A stretch of 12,156 bases of DNA from a virus (Duplodnaviria > Heunggongvirae > Uroviricota > Caudoviricetes). The translations under genes were made by a program, and so were the position numbers. This document shows positions 2,994 to 10,165 of this stretch, piece by piece (the stretch's first letter is position 1; each line of letters opens with the position of its first letter). The stretch covers positions 1 to 12,156 of IMG/VR virus record IMGVR_UViG_2802429247_000008. The stretch is one strand, 5' to 3'. A model generated the notes under the pieces. The model did no database searches. It was not told where the DNA came from and worked only from the letters and a program-made list of their open reading frames with translations.

Positions 2994-3641
2994 ATGATGG
3001 AAAGCCTTGGCATCAGGCTTAAGAAACTCAGAAAAGATAAGGGACTCACCCAAGTAGAACTGGGTAAGCTTTCAGGCGTGACTGGGGTTACTATAGGGTA
3101 CTGGGAGAAAGATCTAAACGAACCCGGCAGCAAAGCTCTAAGTAAGTTAGCCCAAGCATTAGGAACTACTGAGTCCTATCTCCTGTATGGAGTATCGTCT
3201 CCTGAACTATCTTTTGTGCAGAGCAATCCAGGCACCAAGATCCCCTACTTTTCGTGGGGTGACGCGATTTCTTTCCTAATCTTAGAAGGAGAGAAAACAA
3301 TGGGAAATGTCGATAGGATCACCACATTCTTTGATGTAGTGGAAGGTGATTTTGCCGTTTCAATGCCTGATGACACTATGCATAACCCCTCAGGGTCGCC
3401 AAGTATCCCAGTTGGTGCCACTGTGATCCTAAGACCAGGAGAAAGTTATAAAAATGGCAGTATCGTCGCTGTAATAGTTCCAGATCCTCTTACAAATGAA
3501 CCGTCTATGACTATAAAAAAATTAGTTATTGATGGAAAACTTGTGTATTTAAGCCCTCTCAATCCGCGCTATCAATCATCCTTGCTTACGCCAGAGTGTA
3601 AAATTGTTGCCGTAGCAAAAGGTGTACAGTTCAACCTATAA
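2994..3641 (+). CDS. cI/LexA-like prophage repressor (N-terminal XRE HTH, C-terminal S24 peptidase domain)
   Basis: 215 aa. HTH at LTQVELGKLSGVTGVTIGYWEKDLNEP. C-terminal VEGDFAVSMPDD (Ser of the catalytic dyad) and MTIKKLVIDGKLVYLSPLNPRY (Lys of the dyad), closely resembling lambda cI [22 protein letters not shown]. Two tandem ATGs at 2994 and 2997. Confidence 0.85.
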   Translation: MMESLGIRLKKLRKDKGLTQVELGKLSGVTGVTIGYWEKDLNEPGSKALSKLAQALGTTESYLLYGVSSPELSFVQSNPGTKIPYFSWGDAISFLILEGEKTMGNVDRITTFFDVVEGDFAVSMPDDTMHNPSGSPSIPVGATVILRPGESYKNGSIVAVIVPDPLTNEPSMTIKKLVIDGKLVYLSPLNPRYQSSLLTPECKIVAVAKGVQFNL

Positions 3642-3663
3642 CCCTGCCATGTTCTTGAACTTA

Positions 3664-3690
3664 AGGTCGGTTATGCCGACCTTTTTTTTA
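3664..3690 (+). terminator. Rho-independent terminator downstream of the repressor gene
   Basis: Stem GGTCGG (3665-3670) and CCGACC (3676-3681) around a 5-nt loop, followed immediately by an 8-T run (3682-3689). Confidence 0.7.
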
Positions 3691-3708: not shown

Positions 3709-3737
3709 TTGACTATAAAACTAAATACTTTTAGATT
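3709..3737 (+). promoter_or_regulatory. pL-like promoter with overlapping operator-like site (OL-like)
   Basis: -35 TTGACT (3709-3714), 17-bp spacer, -10 TAGATT (3732-3737). The 20-mer AAACTAAATACTTTTAGATT (3718-3737) matches the OR palindrome at 17 of 20 positions. An extra TTAGATT at 3698-3704. Confidence 0.45.
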
Positions 3738-4209: not shown

Positions 4210-4694
4210 CGATTAAAACGTCTACTCCTGCTGTTCCAGAATAACTTCATAAAATGGGAGTATTTTTCGGTGACGAGATAATAAGAACAGTTTGCGCTAT
4301 CACTCTGATGTTGAATGATGCCCTTCCGTTCTAATTTTTTCATAACCGGGTTACGGCAAGGAGAAGTGATAATAAGATTTCCTGTTTTAAGGAAATCTTT
4401 AAATACAGCGATTTCTTTCTCAGATAAACGAAGCAATACTCGTTGCTCTGGTAGTAATGAATAATGCTTTTGAATATGTGCTCGCAATCTTGAGAAGGAA
4501 ATGGCGACCACGAAAGAAAAGGCAAAAACGATAATCTGAAAGAGCCAAGATATTTCAGTATAAGCATTGAATGCGACAGTAAACTCTTTCGGTATCAGCC
4601 AGAGAGTGAGACCAAAAATGATAATCGTATACATAAGTCTTTCGAGTGGCTCGTTAGCAAAAAGTTTCAACAATGGAGTAAATACATCCAACAT
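4206..4694 (-). CDS. sieB: Superinfection exclusion protein B
   Basis: 162-aa product from ATG at 4692-4694 (MLDVFTPLLKLFANEPLERLMYTIIIFGLTLWLIP...), with hydrophobic membrane segments. The supplied ORF extends 41 codons further upstream to 4817, but that extension looks non-coding. Confidence 0.8.
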   Translation of the reverse strand: MLDVFTPLLKLFANEPLERLMYTIIIFGLTLWLIPKEFTVAFNAYTEISWLFQIIVFAFSFVVAISFSRLRAHIQKHYSLLPEQRVLLRLSEKEIAVFKDFLKTGNLIITSPCRNPVMKKLERKGIIQHQSDSANCSYYLVTEKYSHFMKLFWNSRSRRFNR

Positions 4695-4912
4695 ATCAAT
4701 AACTCTCAACTGTAAGGGTATTGAAATGTTAACACAAGCTCTCGCTGTAGGGGTATAGCCGAGACCACCGAAGCCCGGAGGTGGTGAAATAAAACCGGGC
4801 ACAACACGAAGGCGCATTTCCGATATCCATAAAGAGTCGGTCTTGTCTGTTAAATTTAAATGGTGGGAGTGCGCCTCCGGTTGTAAATAACGACATTGCT
4901 GTGTGTAGTCCT

Positions 4913-4960
4913 GGCGGCATCAGTTTTTTTCTTGAAGTTCGGCTGATGTCCGCCCTTTTT
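4913..4960 (+). terminator. Terminator-like hairpin plus T-run in the sieB/kilR divergent intergenic region
   Basis: Stem GGCGGCATCAG (4913-4923) pairs with CTGATG(T)CCGCC (4943-4954) with one bulge, followed by CTTTTT (4955-4960). The 19-nt loop is large for an intrinsic terminator, so confidence is low. Confidence 0.3.
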
Positions 4961-5135
4961 AAAGTGAATTTTGTGATGCGGTGAATGCGGCTAAGCGCAC
5001 GTGGCACAGTTAAAAGTCATGTTAGTCCTTATTGGTTTGGGTGGGAAAGCCGACTGTAATTGTTAACTGGTTGCAGTCACCTGGAGGCACCAGGCACCGC
5101 ATCAACAAAGTTCATTTGTAAAAATGGAGATAATT

Positions 5136-5357
5136 ATGATTGCACATCACTTCGGAACTGATGAAATACCACGTCAGTGTGTGACTCCTGGCGATTATGT
5201 TCTTCATGAAGGCCGGACATATATTGCCTCGGCAAACAATATTAAAAAGCGAAAACTATATATTCGTAACCTGACCACAAAAACATGCATTACTGACTGC
5301 ATGATTAAAGTTTTCCTCGGTCGTGATGGTTTACCTGTAAAGGCGGAATCATGGTGA
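5136..5357 (+). CDS. kilR: KilR-like killing / cell-division inhibitor protein (73 aa)
   Basis: ATG at 5136 with GGAG 6 nt upstream; the supplied ORF starts 4 codons earlier at 5124 with no SD. Product [35 protein letters not shown].... Position between sieB and ydaE matches Rac kilR. Sequence identity is from memory only. Confidence 0.6.
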
Positions 5358-5527
5358 TGACTAAGAAAATAAAATGTGCTTACCACCTTTGCAATAAAGG
5401 GGTTGAAGAAAGCAAAAGCATTAAAAGACCACTTCATTTCATGCGTGGAGTTATACCAACGACGGAAATGAAAAAATATTGTAGTGAAATCTGTGCCGAA
5501 AAAGACAAGATGGCACACGAACTTTAA
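5357..5527 (+). CDS. ydaE: YdaE-like small Cys-rich (zinc-binding) protein, 56 aa
   Basis: ATG at 5357 overlaps the kilR stop (ATGA). Product [56 protein letters not shown] carries C-x4-C ... C-x3-C. Below the ORF-track length cutoff. Confidence 0.62.
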   Translation: MTKKIKCAYHLCNKGVEESKSIKRPLHFMRGVIPTTEMKKYCSEICAEKDKMAHEL

Positions 5528-5601
5528 TTAACTGACTATGCGAAACTGAATTCATGCCAGCAATGGCAGGGATTCGCTCAACCTTAATTAAGGAGAAAAA
5601 C

Positions 5602-5877
5602 ATGATTACTAATTATGAAACCACTATTGTAACTACTGATGACATTGTTCACGAGGTTAATCTGGAAGGAAAGCGTATTGGCTACGTGATTAAAACAGAA
5701 AATAAAGAAACCCCATTCACTGTAGTTGATATCGACGGTCCATCAGGCAACGTTAAAACACTTCACGAAGGTGTCAAAAAAATGAGCCTGGTGCATATCG
5801 GAAAGAATCTGCCCACAGAAAAAAAAGCCGAATTTCTGGCAACTCTGATTGCAATGAAATTAAAAGGTGAAATCTGA
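5602..5877 (+). CDS. racC: RacC-like protein (91 aa)
   Basis: ATG at 5602 with AGGAG 6 nt upstream; the supplied ORF starts at 5554 with no SD. Product MITNYETTIVTTDDIVHEVNLEGKRIGYVIKTENKETPF.... Lies immediately upstream of recE, as in Rac. Confidence 0.6.
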   Translation: MITNYETTIVTTDDIVHEVNLEGKRIGYVIKTENKETPFTVVDIDGPSGNVKTLHEGVKKMSLVHIGKNLPTEKKAEFLATLIAMKLKGEI

Positions 5878-5882
5878 AAGAA

Positions 5883-5907
5883 ATAGCCTGCGTATGGCGC
5901 AGGCTAT
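5883..5907. repeat. Perfect 10-bp inverted repeat between racC and recE
   Basis: ATAGCCTGCG (5883-5892) and CGCAGGCTAT (5898-5907) around a 5-nt loop. No downstream T-run on the plus strand, so not a canonical intrinsic terminator. Confidence 0.5.
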
Positions 5908-5978
5908 GAACAGTGTGTATCCGGCAAGATCATTCACTGAACAAAACGAATTTTAATCTGAGTTGAGGTTAAAAAACA

Positions 5979-8900
5979 ATGAGCACAAAACCACTCTTCC
6001 TGTTACGGAAAGCGAAAAAATCATCCGGTGAACCTGACGTCGTCCTGTGGGCAAGCGACGATTTTGAATCGACCTGTGCCACTCTGGACTACCTGATCGT
6101 TAAGTCAGGTAAAAAACTGAGCAGCTATTTTAAAGCTGTTGCCACGAATTTTCCTGTCGTTAATGACCTGCCCCCTGAAGGTGAGATCGATTTTACCTGG
6201 AGTGAACGCTATCAACTCAGCAAAGACTCCATGACCTGGGAACTAAAATCGGGAGCAGCGCCAGACGACGTTCACCATCAGGAGAATGCTCAGGAAACCG
6301 AAGAACTGACGGGAGGGCAGGAAGAAAACACACTGGCAGACGCTCACGGGGATTGCCAGGATTGCGAAGTTTCTGTATCTACTTTGCGGTTCACACAGCG
6401 TCTTCTGCACATTTTTACCTATGCGGCCGGGGATCGGAAATACCTGCATCATGCCACCCGAGAACAACGCGAACACATTACTGCTCTTGAGATGGATCAG
6501 GAAAACAGCTATGTCCAGAATCTGCTGTTGGCCATACGCGGCATGGCAGAACCGACAACTCTGGATAATGCCGCCCTGCTCCGCCTGACTGATGCAATTA
6601 AGGGGGTTTTCTCTATCACGAAAAAACATCAGCCCTATGAATTTAAGAATTTCATTTCAGCCTGGCTGGATACCGAACACATTGATCGCGGTCTTCTGAC
6701 AAAAGAATGGCGAAAAGGGAATCGTGTTTCACGCATCACTCGCACGGCTTCCGGTGCTAATGCTGGCGGCGGGAACCTCACCGATCGCGGCGAAGGTTTC
6801 GTCCACGATCTGACGTCACTGGCGCGCGATGTAGCCACTGGCGTACTGGCCCGTTCAATGGACGTGGACATCTATAACCTTCATCCGGCACACGCTAAAC
6901 GCATTGAGGAAATTATCGCTGAAAATAAACCGCCCTTTTCTGTTTTCCGCGACAAATTCATCACCATGCCTGGCGGGCTGGATTATTCACGCGCCATCGT
7001 GGTTGCGTCCGTGAAAGAAGCACCAATTGGGATCGAGGTCATCCCCGCGCACGTCACTGAATATCTGAACAAAGTACTGACTGAAACCGATCATGCCAAC
7101 CCTGATCCGGAAATCGTGGATATTGCCTGCGGTCGCTCCTCTGCCCCGATGCCGCAGCGTGTAACAGAAGAAGGAAAACAGGATGATGAAGAAAAACCGC
7201 AACCATCTGAAACAACGGCAGATGAACAGGGAGAGGCTGAAACAATGGAACCGGACGCAACTGAACATCATCAGGACACGCAGCCGCTGGATGCTCAGTC
7301 ACAGGTAAATTCTGTTGATGCGAAATATCAGGAACTGCGGGCAGAACTCCATGAAGCCCGGAAAAACATTCCATCAAAAAATCCTGTCGATGCCGATAAA
7401 TTGCTTGCTGCATCACGTGGTGAATTTGTTGACGGAATTAGCGACCCGAACGATCCGAAATGGGTTAAGGGGATCCAGACTCGCGATTCTGTGTACCAGA
7501 ACCAGCCAGAAACGGAAAAAACCAGCCCGGATGTGAAACAACCTGAGGCAGTAGTGCAACAGGAACCGGAAATAGTCTGCAATGCCTGCGGTCAGACTGG
7601 CGGAGATAACTGCCCTGACTGTGGGGCGGTGACGGGCGACGCAACATACCAGGAAACATTCGATGAAGAGAATCAGGTTGAAGCTAAGGAAAAAGATCCG
7701 GTGGAAATGGAAGGCGCTGAACATCCGCACAATGAGAATGCTGGCAGCGATCCGCATCGTGATTGCAGTGATGAAACTGGTGAAGCGTCAGCTCCTGTAG
7801 CAACTGAAATCATGTGGCCGTCATATTTCGAGCCTGGCCGCTATGAAAACCTCCCGAACGAGGTTTATCACTCCGCCAACGGAATAAGCAGCACGATGCT
7901 GAAGGATGCCCGTATCAGCCTGATGTATTACCACGGACGGCACATTGCCGGAACTATTCCGAACGAGGAAAGTGATGCACTGCTGCGTGGGCGGATCATT
8001 CACAGCTATGTTCTGGAAACGGATAAATTCGCTGATGAATATGCCATTCCGGTACCGGTTCCTGAATATGTGGTTACTACTTCTAGCGAACTGATCGCCA
8101 TCATTAAAAAACACAATGCCAGTCTGCCAGCACTGATGACACCAGAGCAGATGAAAGAGTGGATCGAAAGCTACAACAGCACTCTTATACAGCCACTGTC
8201 TGTAAGTGCCGGGGCCGAAGAAACAGGCATCCTTTACGGTTCGCTTCCGGTGGAATTTCGGCGTATTCCTGAGGGGGAAAAACACACAGCATCAGCAATG
8301 AAAGCCTGTATTAAAGAATACAACGCAAGCCTCCCTCCTCTGTTGAAAACCAGTGGAGCACGGGAGCAGCTTCTGGATCAAATTGAAACTGTAGACCCAG
8401 AACTGGCAAAAAAAGAACGTGCTAAATCTTTGCCTTACAACATCAGTGGCACAAAAGAGCAATTAACCGAAATCGCACGGAAAATTCGCCCGGAACTGGT
8501 GACACTGGAGGACTGGCAAAAACGCCAGCAAGAAGAAAATGCCGGGAAAACGTTTATCAGTCCGGAGATGTATGAACAGGCAAAAAATATTCACGCGGCA
8601 CTGCAAAACAATACCGATGCAGCAAGGCTACTCAACCACCCGGATCGCAAATCTGAAATCAGCTATTTCGGGTTTGATGAAGAAACCGGGCTGGAAATCA
8701 GGGTCCGTCCTGATATCGAAATCCGGCTGCCATACGAAAGCATTTGCGCTGACGTGAAGTCAGTCAGCCTCGGTTATGTGCGACAGGAACGACTTAAAGA
8801 TCGCCTGCACCGTGAAATTATTGAGCGTGATTATCACCTCAGCGCCGCAATGTATTGCGATGTGGCAAACCTGGACAAATTTTTCTGGATCTTCGTCAAC

Positions 8901-9112: not shown

Positions 9113-10165
9113 ATGAACGAATTAACTCAACAAGAAAATATTAACTCTAATGTTGCGGTTTTCAGCCCTCAGTCCCTGGCTGCAATTCAGACATTTTCCC
9201 AGGTAATGGCTTCCGGCATGGCTACTGTACCGGAACACCTCCGGGGAAATCCATCAGACTGCATGGCCATCACCATGCAGGCGATGCAGTGGCAAATGAA
9301 CCCTTACGCAGTAGCTCAGAAAACTTTCGTTGTGAATGGTGTGCTCGGATATGAAGCGCAACTGGTTAATGCCGTAATCAGTACTCGTGGGCCGCTAACC
9401 GGGCGTATTGAATATGACTGGTTCGGGCCGTGGGAAAAAATTATCGGGAAATTTGAAATCAGGAAGAGCGACAAAGGGAAAGAATATCGTGTACCTGGCT
9501 GGAAGCTGGCCGATGAAAACGGGATCGGTGTTCGTGTCCAGGCAACACTACGCGGCGAAAGTAAACCACGCGTACTGGAATTACTTCTGGCGCAGGCCAG
9601 AACACGTAACTCAACGCTATGGGCCGACGATCCTCGCCAGCAGCTTGCCTATCTAGCGCTGAAACGCTGGGCGCGCCTTTATTGCCCCGAAGTGATTCTT
9701 GGAGTGTACACCAGGGACGAACTGGACGAGCCACAGGAAAAAATCATTAATCCGGTTCAGGAACATAAAAACACTTCCGCTTGCCGCGCGGAACGTGAAA
9801 CAACAATTATTGAGCAGGATGCCGGGGAAAACTGGATCGATGCTTTCCGTGAACGTATTGAGCAGGCACAAAGCACCGGGGAAACAACAGCACTTCGCCA
9901 GGAAGTGGAAGATCATAAAAATACACTTGGCGCTCTCTATACGGAACTTAAAGGAAAAGTGGTTCAGCGTCATCACCGTCTCAATGCTATTGCCCGTATC
10001 GAGAAGATGATAAATGACCTACCTTCTTCAGGTGATCCAGAAGCAGAACAAAAATTTACTGCTCTGGAAAATACGCTGAATGCTGCCCGGCCACATCTGG
10101 GTGAATTATATGAGGCGTATAAAACGACACTGACAGATATGAAACCAGAATATATCGGCTCCTGA
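9113..10165 (+). CDS. Single-strand annealing protein of the RecT/Red-beta superfamily (Red-beta-like), 350 aa
   Basis: Immediately downstream of recE (11-nt gap, SD GAGGAAGGA). The segment WADDPRQQLAYLALKRWARLYCPEVILGVYTRDELDE resembles lambda Red-beta WQSHPKRMLRHKAMIQCARLAFGFAGIYDKDEAE. It does not resemble K-12 RecT as I remember it. Confidence 0.7.
   Translation: MNELTQQENINSNVAVFSPQSLAAIQTFSQVMASGMATVPEHLRGNPSDCMAITMQAMQWQMNPYAVAQKTFVVNGVLGYEAQLVNAVISTRGPLTGRIEYDWFGPWEKIIGKFEIRKSDKGKEYRVPGWKLADENGIGVRVQATLRGESKPRVLELLLAQARTRNSTLWADDPRQQLAYLALKRWARLYCPEVILGVYTRDELDEPQEKIINPVQEHKNTSACRAERETTIIEQDAGENWIDAFRERIEQAQSTGETTALRQEVEDHKNTLGALYTELKGKVVQRHHRLNAIARIEKMINDLPSSGDPEAEQKFTALENTLNAARPHLGELYEAYKTTLTDMKPEYIGS

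Follow-up and report, generated by a model that had tools for sequence, protein, structure and literature searches.

A palindrome between racC and recE as the probable terminator of a short antisense RNA in Rac-type prophages of Escherichia coli

The spacer that separates racC from recE in Rac-type prophages of E. coli contains a perfect palindrome, and the question raised by this locus is what role such an element plays just upstream of a recombination gene. The stretch of DNA analysed, hereafter the window, comprises 12,156 nucleotides of the IMG/VR virus record IMGVR_UViG_2802429247_000008 and corresponds to the immunity-to-integrase part of a Rac-type E. coli prophage, with the plus-strand order kilR, ydaE, racC, recE, a RecT-family gene (9113-10165), ralR/RalA, xisR and intR. 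A 547-nt query showed 100% identity to strain 135 and 96.7% to K-12 MG1655. A first, sequence-only reading had considered the palindrome to be a protein-binding site, an RNA processing or stability hairpin, or a termination signal devoid of a U-tract, and had held a barrier at this place to be plausible because recE of K-12 is activated by sbcA mutations just upstream of it. The evidence gathered here indicates, with good confidence, that the palindrome serves as Rho-independent terminator to a short minus-strand RNA, convergent with the racC-recE-recT early-left operon of the prophage.

The surroundings of the spacer present several features of their own. The repressor-like ORF at 2994-3641 is directly followed by a textbook terminator on the plus strand (3663-3683, 9-bp stem and T7), downstream of which the best sigma-70 match of the window is found (TTGACT-17-TAGATT, 3709-3737, plus strand), a predicted promoter which is probably the early-left promoter. 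Upstream of kilR, a DicF-like Rfam match (4900-4955, plus strand) reaches 39.1 bits, under the gathering score of 48, and an STnc100 match (4957-5143, plus strand) reaches 35.5 bits. K-12 annotates the small RNA KilS in about this region, so that KilS may be a DicF relative in Rac. Further downstream, the recombination module differs from that of K-12, since recE and the RecT-family gene of the window encode 1040 and 350 aa and lie 11 nt apart, whereas those of K-12 encode 866 and 269 aa and overlap; the racC-recE spacer is nonetheless identical.

The palindrome is formed by two arms, 5883-5892 (ATAGCCTGCG) and 5898-5907 (CGCAGGCTAT), complementary at 10 of 10 bases and separated by the 5-nt loop TATGG, as had been correctly described from the letters. 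It begins 5 nt downstream of the racC stop codon (TGA, 5875-5877), and its last base and the A of the recE ATG (5979) are 72 nt apart, with 71 nt between them (Table 1). In dinucleotide shuffles, perfect hairpins with 10 bp or more and a loop of 3-8 nt occur 0.14 times per 12-kb window, some 11% of the shuffled windows holding at least one, and two are present in the real window; given that expectation, the palindrome alone is mildly unusual, which leaves room for a palindrome arisen by chance, or for a repeated extragenic element of the REP kind, without any specific role. This reading is effectively refuted: the REP consensus is absent at the palindrome, the element is single-copy in most genomes (median 1, maximum 2 places per genome), its stem is conserved with covariation and it coincides with a strong mapped RNA 3' end. 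It is this conservation, together with the experimental 3'-end data, that marks the palindrome as non-random. The second perfect 10-bp hairpin of the window (4374-4399, AAGATTTCCT-n6-AGGAAATCTT) is AT-rich, lies within the sieB ORF and is probably of no consequence.

Table 1. Features of the racC-recE spacer and its flanks in window coordinates, and hairpin types of related loci
Feature	Position	Strand	Basis or sequence
racC, upstream gene of the early-left operon	5602..5877	+	RefSeq annotation of identical or near-identical loci
recE, exonuclease VIII, 1040 aa	5979..9101	+	Pfam Exonuc_VIII, E = 1.8e-66
Probable terminator hairpin of the antisense RNA (the palindrome)	5883..5907	-	10-bp perfect stem, 6 G-C pairs, loop CCAUA
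U-rich tract after the stem (UUCUUUC)	5876..5882	-	mapped RNA 3' end at 5879
-35 hexamer TTGTTT, predicted	5974..5979	-	18-nt spacer; overlaps the A of the recE ATG
-10 hexamer TAAAAT, predicted	5950..5955	-	PWM scan
Putative 64-nt antisense small RNA, GUUCAGUGAAUGAUCUUGCCGGAUACACACUGUUCAUAGCCUGCGCCAUACGCAGGCUAUUUCU	5879..5942	-	Term-seq 3' end and predicted 5' end
5' stem-loop of the antisense RNA, stem CAGUG/CACUG	5911..5939	-	predicted fold
Hairpin type T1			ATAGCCTGCG-n5-CGCAGGCTAT
Hairpin type T2			GCCTGCAC-n3-GTGCAGGC
Hairpin type T3			AGGCCTGCAC-n3-GTGCAGGCCT

The two strands differ in what follows the stem. On the plus strand the sequence beyond it is GAACAGTGTG, without a U-tract, and in this respect the earlier statement that the palindrome lacks such a tract stands. 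It does not hold for the minus strand, where the reading is ATAGCCTGCG-CCATA-CGCAGGCTAT-TTCTTTC and the tail beyond the stem is TTCTTTCAGA; the tract had been overlooked because only the plus strand was read. The minus-strand structure has the stem of an intrinsic terminator (10 bp, 6 G-C, loop of 5 nt, dG of about -16 to -18 kcal/mol), and a terminator scan called the palindrome on this strand only, ranking it first among the terminator-like sites of the window. Related loci fall into three sequence types, T1 (that of the window), T2 and T3, all of which carry a T-rich tract on the minus strand: TTCTTTC in T1, short and interrupted in the RNA (UUCUUUC), TTTCTTTTTTT in T2 and TTTTTCCC in T3. 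On the recE strand the tails are GAACAGTG and GAGTGAAG. Over 134 related loci, the 8 nt past the stem contain on average 5.6 T on the minus strand versus 1.0 on the plus strand, the latter figure applying to all types, and in every type the T-run after the stem on the minus strand appears as an A-run 5' of the stem on the plus strand.

The hairpin would also form in the sense mRNA, where, without a U-tract, it should not terminate. An alternative, in essence that of the sequence-only reading, is that the palindrome acts as a sense-strand RNA element at the 3' side of racC, either as a U-less terminator or pause site, or as a block to 3' exonucleases or a processing site by which racC mRNA would be stabilised and recE limited. 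The hairpin folds equally well in sense RNA (dG of -18.4 kcal/mol, z = -5.9 as plus-strand RNA), and a position 5 nt after a stop codon is the typical place of a 3' stabiliser. Against it, no type has a plus-strand T-tract and the scan never calls that strand. Such a sense-strand role, which could coexist with the antisense terminator, is considered unlikely in view of these data and of the variants and expression reports discussed below.

Published data from K-12 provide the minus-strand terminator with an RNA end. Across the element, the window and K-12 are 100% identical, the sole difference in the aligned 151 nt being position 5847, within racC; since racC and recE are located on the K-12 minus strand, the K-12 plus strand corresponds to the minus strand of the window. 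By Term-seq, Adams et al. (2021, eLife, PMC7815308, supplementary file 1) located a 3' end at NC_000913.3 1417486 (+), which is listed there as antisense to racC. This position is 5879 in the window, within the U-tract, 4 nt past the stem and 2 nt outside the racC stop codon; the mapped RNA end reads ...GGCUAUUUCU-3' and the sequence listed with the Term-seq entry ends ...CGCAGGCTATTTCT. Mean reads at the site are 185,664 and 146,140 in two entries, the coordinate prefix occurs 3 times in the file, which has three condition sheets, and for comparison the LB OD 0.4 sheet gives 66,698 reads for SokC and 6,222 for SgrS (PMC7815308). The minus-strand intrinsic terminator yields an abundant RNA 3' end in K-12. 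Thus, the 3'-end mapping that had been proposed as a check does place an end at the U-tract of the hairpin, but on the minus strand and not in the direction of recE. Equally, the idea of a functional hairpin linked to termination was sound, while its strand and target were not: the element is a conventional U-tract terminator opposite recE. The K-12 Term-seq tables hold no sense 3' end at 14174xx, a weak point against the sense-strand element as the operon is repressed there.

The 5' end of the RNA has been approached by promoter prediction. A sigma-70 PWM scan found TTGTTT-18-TAAAAT, from 5979 to 5950 on the minus strand, with a score of 12.0. Within 5860-6400 no match on that strand scores higher, and in the entire window, counting both strands, only two do so; these flank the repressor gene, where early promoters are expected. 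A stricter consensus scan made no call in 5000-6500, the antisense -35 matching at 3 of 6 positions only. The Shine-Dalgarno sequence of recE (GAGG, 5965-5968) falls within the spacer of the predicted promoter, whose start, G5942, is K-12 1417423 (+); in an Hfq RIL-seq chimera named recE.racC.IGR, this same base (1417423 +) is the lowest coordinate given for RNA1. Among the rows listed in the SMRT-Cappable-seq and Cappable-seq supplements, the latter possibly incomplete, no entry was present for the site. The promoter match and the RIL-seq coordinate point strongly to transcription starting at G5942 from a sigma-70 promoter placed over the ribosome-binding site and start codon of recE, and, with the same strength, to a discrete 64-nt product with its own promoter, a 5' stem-loop followed by the terminator hairpin, and association with Hfq. 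The RNA is predicted to fold with the 5' stem-loop stacked on the terminator (dG of -24.9 kcal/mol, z = -4.9). Its full complement in the recE leader runs from -100 to -37 and comprises the racC-recE spacer minus the ribosome-binding region, the recE Shine-Dalgarno being left uncovered. On the opposite strand, a 9-bp hairpin is predicted in the sense RNA (UUUUAAUCU/AGGUUAAAA, 5951-5974, plus strand), in which the recE GAGG is divided between the loop and the 3' arm and which could limit recE translation; the same DNA doubles as the spacer of the antisense promoter.

The same 3' end could also arise if the hairpin ended long, pervasive antisense transcription coming from inside recE, rather than a discrete small RNA with its own promoter. 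The start site is placed by a promoter prediction and one RIL-seq coordinate, and antisense 3' ends are described in the literature as common in E. coli; nevertheless, this origin is judged very unlikely, given that the read count exceeds those of known abundant small RNAs, that the best promoter match of the strand lies 64 nt upstream with RIL-seq fragments beginning at the predicted +1, and that pervasive antisense RNAs are, according to the literature, typically Rho-ended and unstable. As a possible source of such a transcript, a minus-strand ORF inside recE (6243-6629) was discarded, being unannotated in all the RefSeq records inspected.

The antisense RNA has so far escaped description. 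It is unannotated in NC_000913.3, where KilS and RalA are annotated, and the element is unannotated in every listed record. Searches against Rfam, at E <= 1 for the whole window and E <= 10 for the local 161 nt, gave no family at the site but chance matches only, the best of which were attenuator-leader models on the minus strand. In the searchable literature on a racC/recE antisense RNA, sbcA, the terminator or recE.racC.IGR, no paper describes the element, so that the RNA is known solely as unnamed rows in three high-throughput tables (Term-seq, RIL-seq and CRAC). A coding role was also considered and rejected: a 9-codon ORF in the T1 RNA (AUGAUCUUGCCGGAUACACACUGUUCAUAG) is not retained in T2, and for this reason the RNA is treated as non-coding.

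The physical association with Hfq comes from literature tables. The RIL-seq library Hfq_t4rnl1_1 (PMC12262471, supplementary file 7) lists the chimera recE.racC.IGR at 1417423-1417444 (+), the RNA having 5,021 further chimeric fragments. Furthermore, by Hfq CRAC in E. coli O157 the region (given as 'recC...racC', sic) is number 64 in the table of recovered regions, with all reads in every second column, which may represent one strand; Hfq CLASH data contained nothing relevant to the element. The single listed RIL-seq partner is the yncE 3'UTR, with 6 chimeras in one library, and its sequence GUAUCCGGCA (at about 220-229 of the segment K-12 1524200-1524800) is perfectly complementary over 10 nt to UGCCGGAUAC in the first stem-loop of the antisense RNA. 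An RNAduplex prediction for the two RNAs was discarded as an unrealistic long-loop duplex, and only the 10-nt perfect complement was kept. The 3' tail of the T1 RNA is just UAUUUCU. A trans role of the antisense RNA is possible.

Comparison across related loci was based on 134 loci from viral contigs, fetched by means of the conserved recE ribosome-binding block, so that this block is conserved by construction in the set; further loci were fetched independently, by megablast, with the variable segment alone and with the RecE N-terminus. A stem of 9-11 bp is kept in all three types, which bears out the expectation that the palindrome would be conserved among Rac-like prophages. In 18 distinct sequences, 91% of the stem cells are paired, versus 18-43% when the 3' partner columns are slid, and changes on both sides affect two stem pairs (AU/UA, AU/GC) as well as one cell at the loop-closing pair. 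Compensatory changes alone cannot separate the strands, because a DNA palindrome is strand-symmetric. A modest strand-specific signal is provided by three variants in which a substitution on one side of the stem weakens the plus-strand fold by more than 2 kcal/mol: all three stay stabler as minus-strand RNA, where the altered pair is G·U, than as plus-strand RNA, where it is an A·C mismatch (e.g. -13.5 versus -7.5 kcal/mol). They weigh against the sense-strand element, but the signal is weakened by the commonest T1 variant, which is slightly stabler as plus-strand hairpin (-17.6 versus -16.2 kcal/mol) and marginally favours that element.

The same comparison bears on the suggestion of a protein-binding site, in its explicit form a DNA operator to which a dimeric protein, for instance a Rac regulator, would bind. 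A perfect 10-n5-10 dyad upstream of recE would suit an operator; its arms, however, have no repeat elsewhere in the window (the sole other match, with 1 mismatch, is inside recE), they vary between types by compensatory and G·U substitutions with pairing kept, their spacing is 5 nt in some loci and 3 nt in others, the loop is found in both orientations, and the mapped RNA 3' end already accounts for the palindrome. An operator is thus most improbable. As for the loop (5893-5897), it occurs as TATGG or CCATA in T1 and as AGT or ACT in T2 between unchanged arms, which looks like inversion between inverted arms, for instance by template switching. A loop that may be turned round in this way is compatible with a terminator.

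Returning to the antisense terminator and its RNA, the predicted promoter is conserved. The -10, read as ATTTTA on the plus strand, is present in 134/134 pattern-fetched loci, only its first base being fixed by the fetch pattern, and the TAAAAT -10 together with the -35 block is invariant in every racC-linked locus, including independently fetched ones with a different hairpin type or recE N-terminus. Moreover, the RNAs of T1, T2 and T3 are all predicted to fold as a 5' stem-loop plus terminator (z from -4.5 to -5.4). The 5' parts of the T1 and T2 RNAs share no significant sequence similarity and their loop sequences are unrelated, yet the stem core AGUG/CACU is common to both, the outer pair being C-G in T1 and G-C in T2. 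Between T1 and T2 loci the divergence of the region is greatest in the RNA body (5908-5949), which is unalignable and flanked by the near-invariant racC 3' end and a 37-nt promoter/ribosome-binding block; it may represent a replaced or rapidly diversifying cassette.

In 5,426 complete E. coli genomes, T1 was found in 1,594 (about 30%) and T2 in 263 (about 5%). With one genome searched per species, RacC homologues were restricted to Escherichia and Shigella, besides two metagenome-assembled genomes otherwise named, and on account of this confinement no deep phylogeny is available. Among the records retrieved, PP818812.1 ('Actinobacillus phage vB_Apl-pPE4') has a kilR-ydaE-racC-recE block with some 90% identity to Rac-type prophages of E. 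coli, and its assignment to an Actinobacillus host looks doubtful. Finally, two viral contigs (L157 and L158, at ~1370-1506) have recE behind a different gene, with no racC, hairpin or TAAAAT -10, and what they share is confined to the ~27 nt that precede the recE ATG (from GAGTTGAGG). These two natural loci, which carry recE without the antisense module, show that the module is dispensable for recE.

Several known systems resemble the arrangement described. Like the putative Rac unit, pO-oop-to of lambda produces a short lambdoid-phage RNA opposite an early operon (77 nt for OOP, a predicted 64 nt in Rac). The gene downstream, O in lambda and recE in Rac, has its ribosome-binding region and start codon covered by the promoter; in both cases the RNA runs back over the spacer toward the upstream gene, cII or racC respectively, and its 5' stem-loop passes directly into an intrinsic terminator, so that two hairpins at a gene junction are found in either phage. 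OOP, which lambda lysogens produce, reduces cII expression via RNase III cleavage of the duplex. There are differences as well: no sequence similarity was detected between the two RNAs (144 of 500 shuffles score as well), OOP covers about 55 nt of cII coding sequence whereas the Rac RNA is wholly intergenic and stops 2 nt outside racC, and OOP belongs to the rightward (replication) operon, in contrast to the leftward (recombination) operon of the Rac RNA. The two layouts nevertheless agree in nearly every point. The Rac RNA is regarded here as an OOP-like antisense RNA that a lambdoid prophage encodes and that ends in a terminator, and its closest analogue is lambda pO-oop-to.

Other comparisons are more distant in one respect or another. 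The Sar RNA of P22 and the c4 RNAs of P1 and P7 are also small antisense RNAs placed in a phage operon spacer and convergent with the regulated transcript, but the Rac RNA gives no Rfam match to any such family, and while Sar covers the ant ribosome-binding site, the Rac RNA leaves that of recE free. The immunity type of P1 and P7 is set by recognition sequences that are specific to the allele; the 5' stem-loop of the Rac RNA, with its shared stem and unrelated loops in T1 and T2, may be compared with this situation. Like the prophage small RNAs that bind Hfq (DicF, AsxR/AgvB and RalA), the Rac RNA is about 60 nt long, has an intrinsic terminator and is recovered with Hfq; unlike them, to which it is unrelated in sequence, it has its main complementarity to its own locus in cis. 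Bidirectional terminators between convergent genes likewise consist of a single hairpin a few nt past a stop codon with an A-run on one side. Here, however, the U-tract is on the minus side only, the plus tail being GAACAGUG, and the next plus-strand gene, recE, is co-directional and must be read through.

From the layout and the lambda analogy, a mode of action may be proposed. The antisense promoter faces the early-left promoter, and its RNA, produced constitutively in the lysogen, would most likely act in the manner of lambda OOP. It would pair with any operon transcript crossing the spacer and lead to its cleavage or decay, probably by RNase III, and the promoter itself would interfere or collide with read-through into recE. 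Such action would determine at what threshold RacC and RecE/RecT are expressed, and in what ratio. By analogy, the RNA probably exerts antisense control over racC/recE expression. It has been reported that silencing of racR induces racC, recE, recT and neighbours together, a result that also argues against the sense-strand element and according to which the element is a modulator at most and not an absolute barrier. The barrier upstream of recE invoked to explain sbcA is unsupported in its sense-strand form, on account of this co-derepression and of the missing T-tract on the recE strand. In a changed form the notion of a negative element upstream of recE survives, as the antisense RNA and its promoter could dampen recE.

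A wider proposal can be advanced only tentatively, being more doubtful than probable. The RNA might be an allele-specific, Hfq-associated antisense regulator with a hypervariable T1/T2 loop, balancing RacC as blocker against RecE as trigger; it may in addition provide the resident Rac with an RNA immunity against superinfecting Rac-like phages of the same allele, and may have host targets in trans, such as the yncE 3'UTR. In this context, the literature describes racC and recE as a linked pair, blocker and trigger respectively, of retron toxin-antitoxin systems, and control of the RacC/RecE ratio would, speculatively, have a clear biological use. The recE and recT genes of Rac are the basis of RecET recombineering, and an abundant RNA produced between racC and recE is an obvious candidate for their regulator, one that is missing from both the K-12 annotation and Rfam. 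If it acts as such, the design of lambda OOP would be extended to the recombination operon of another lambdoid lineage.
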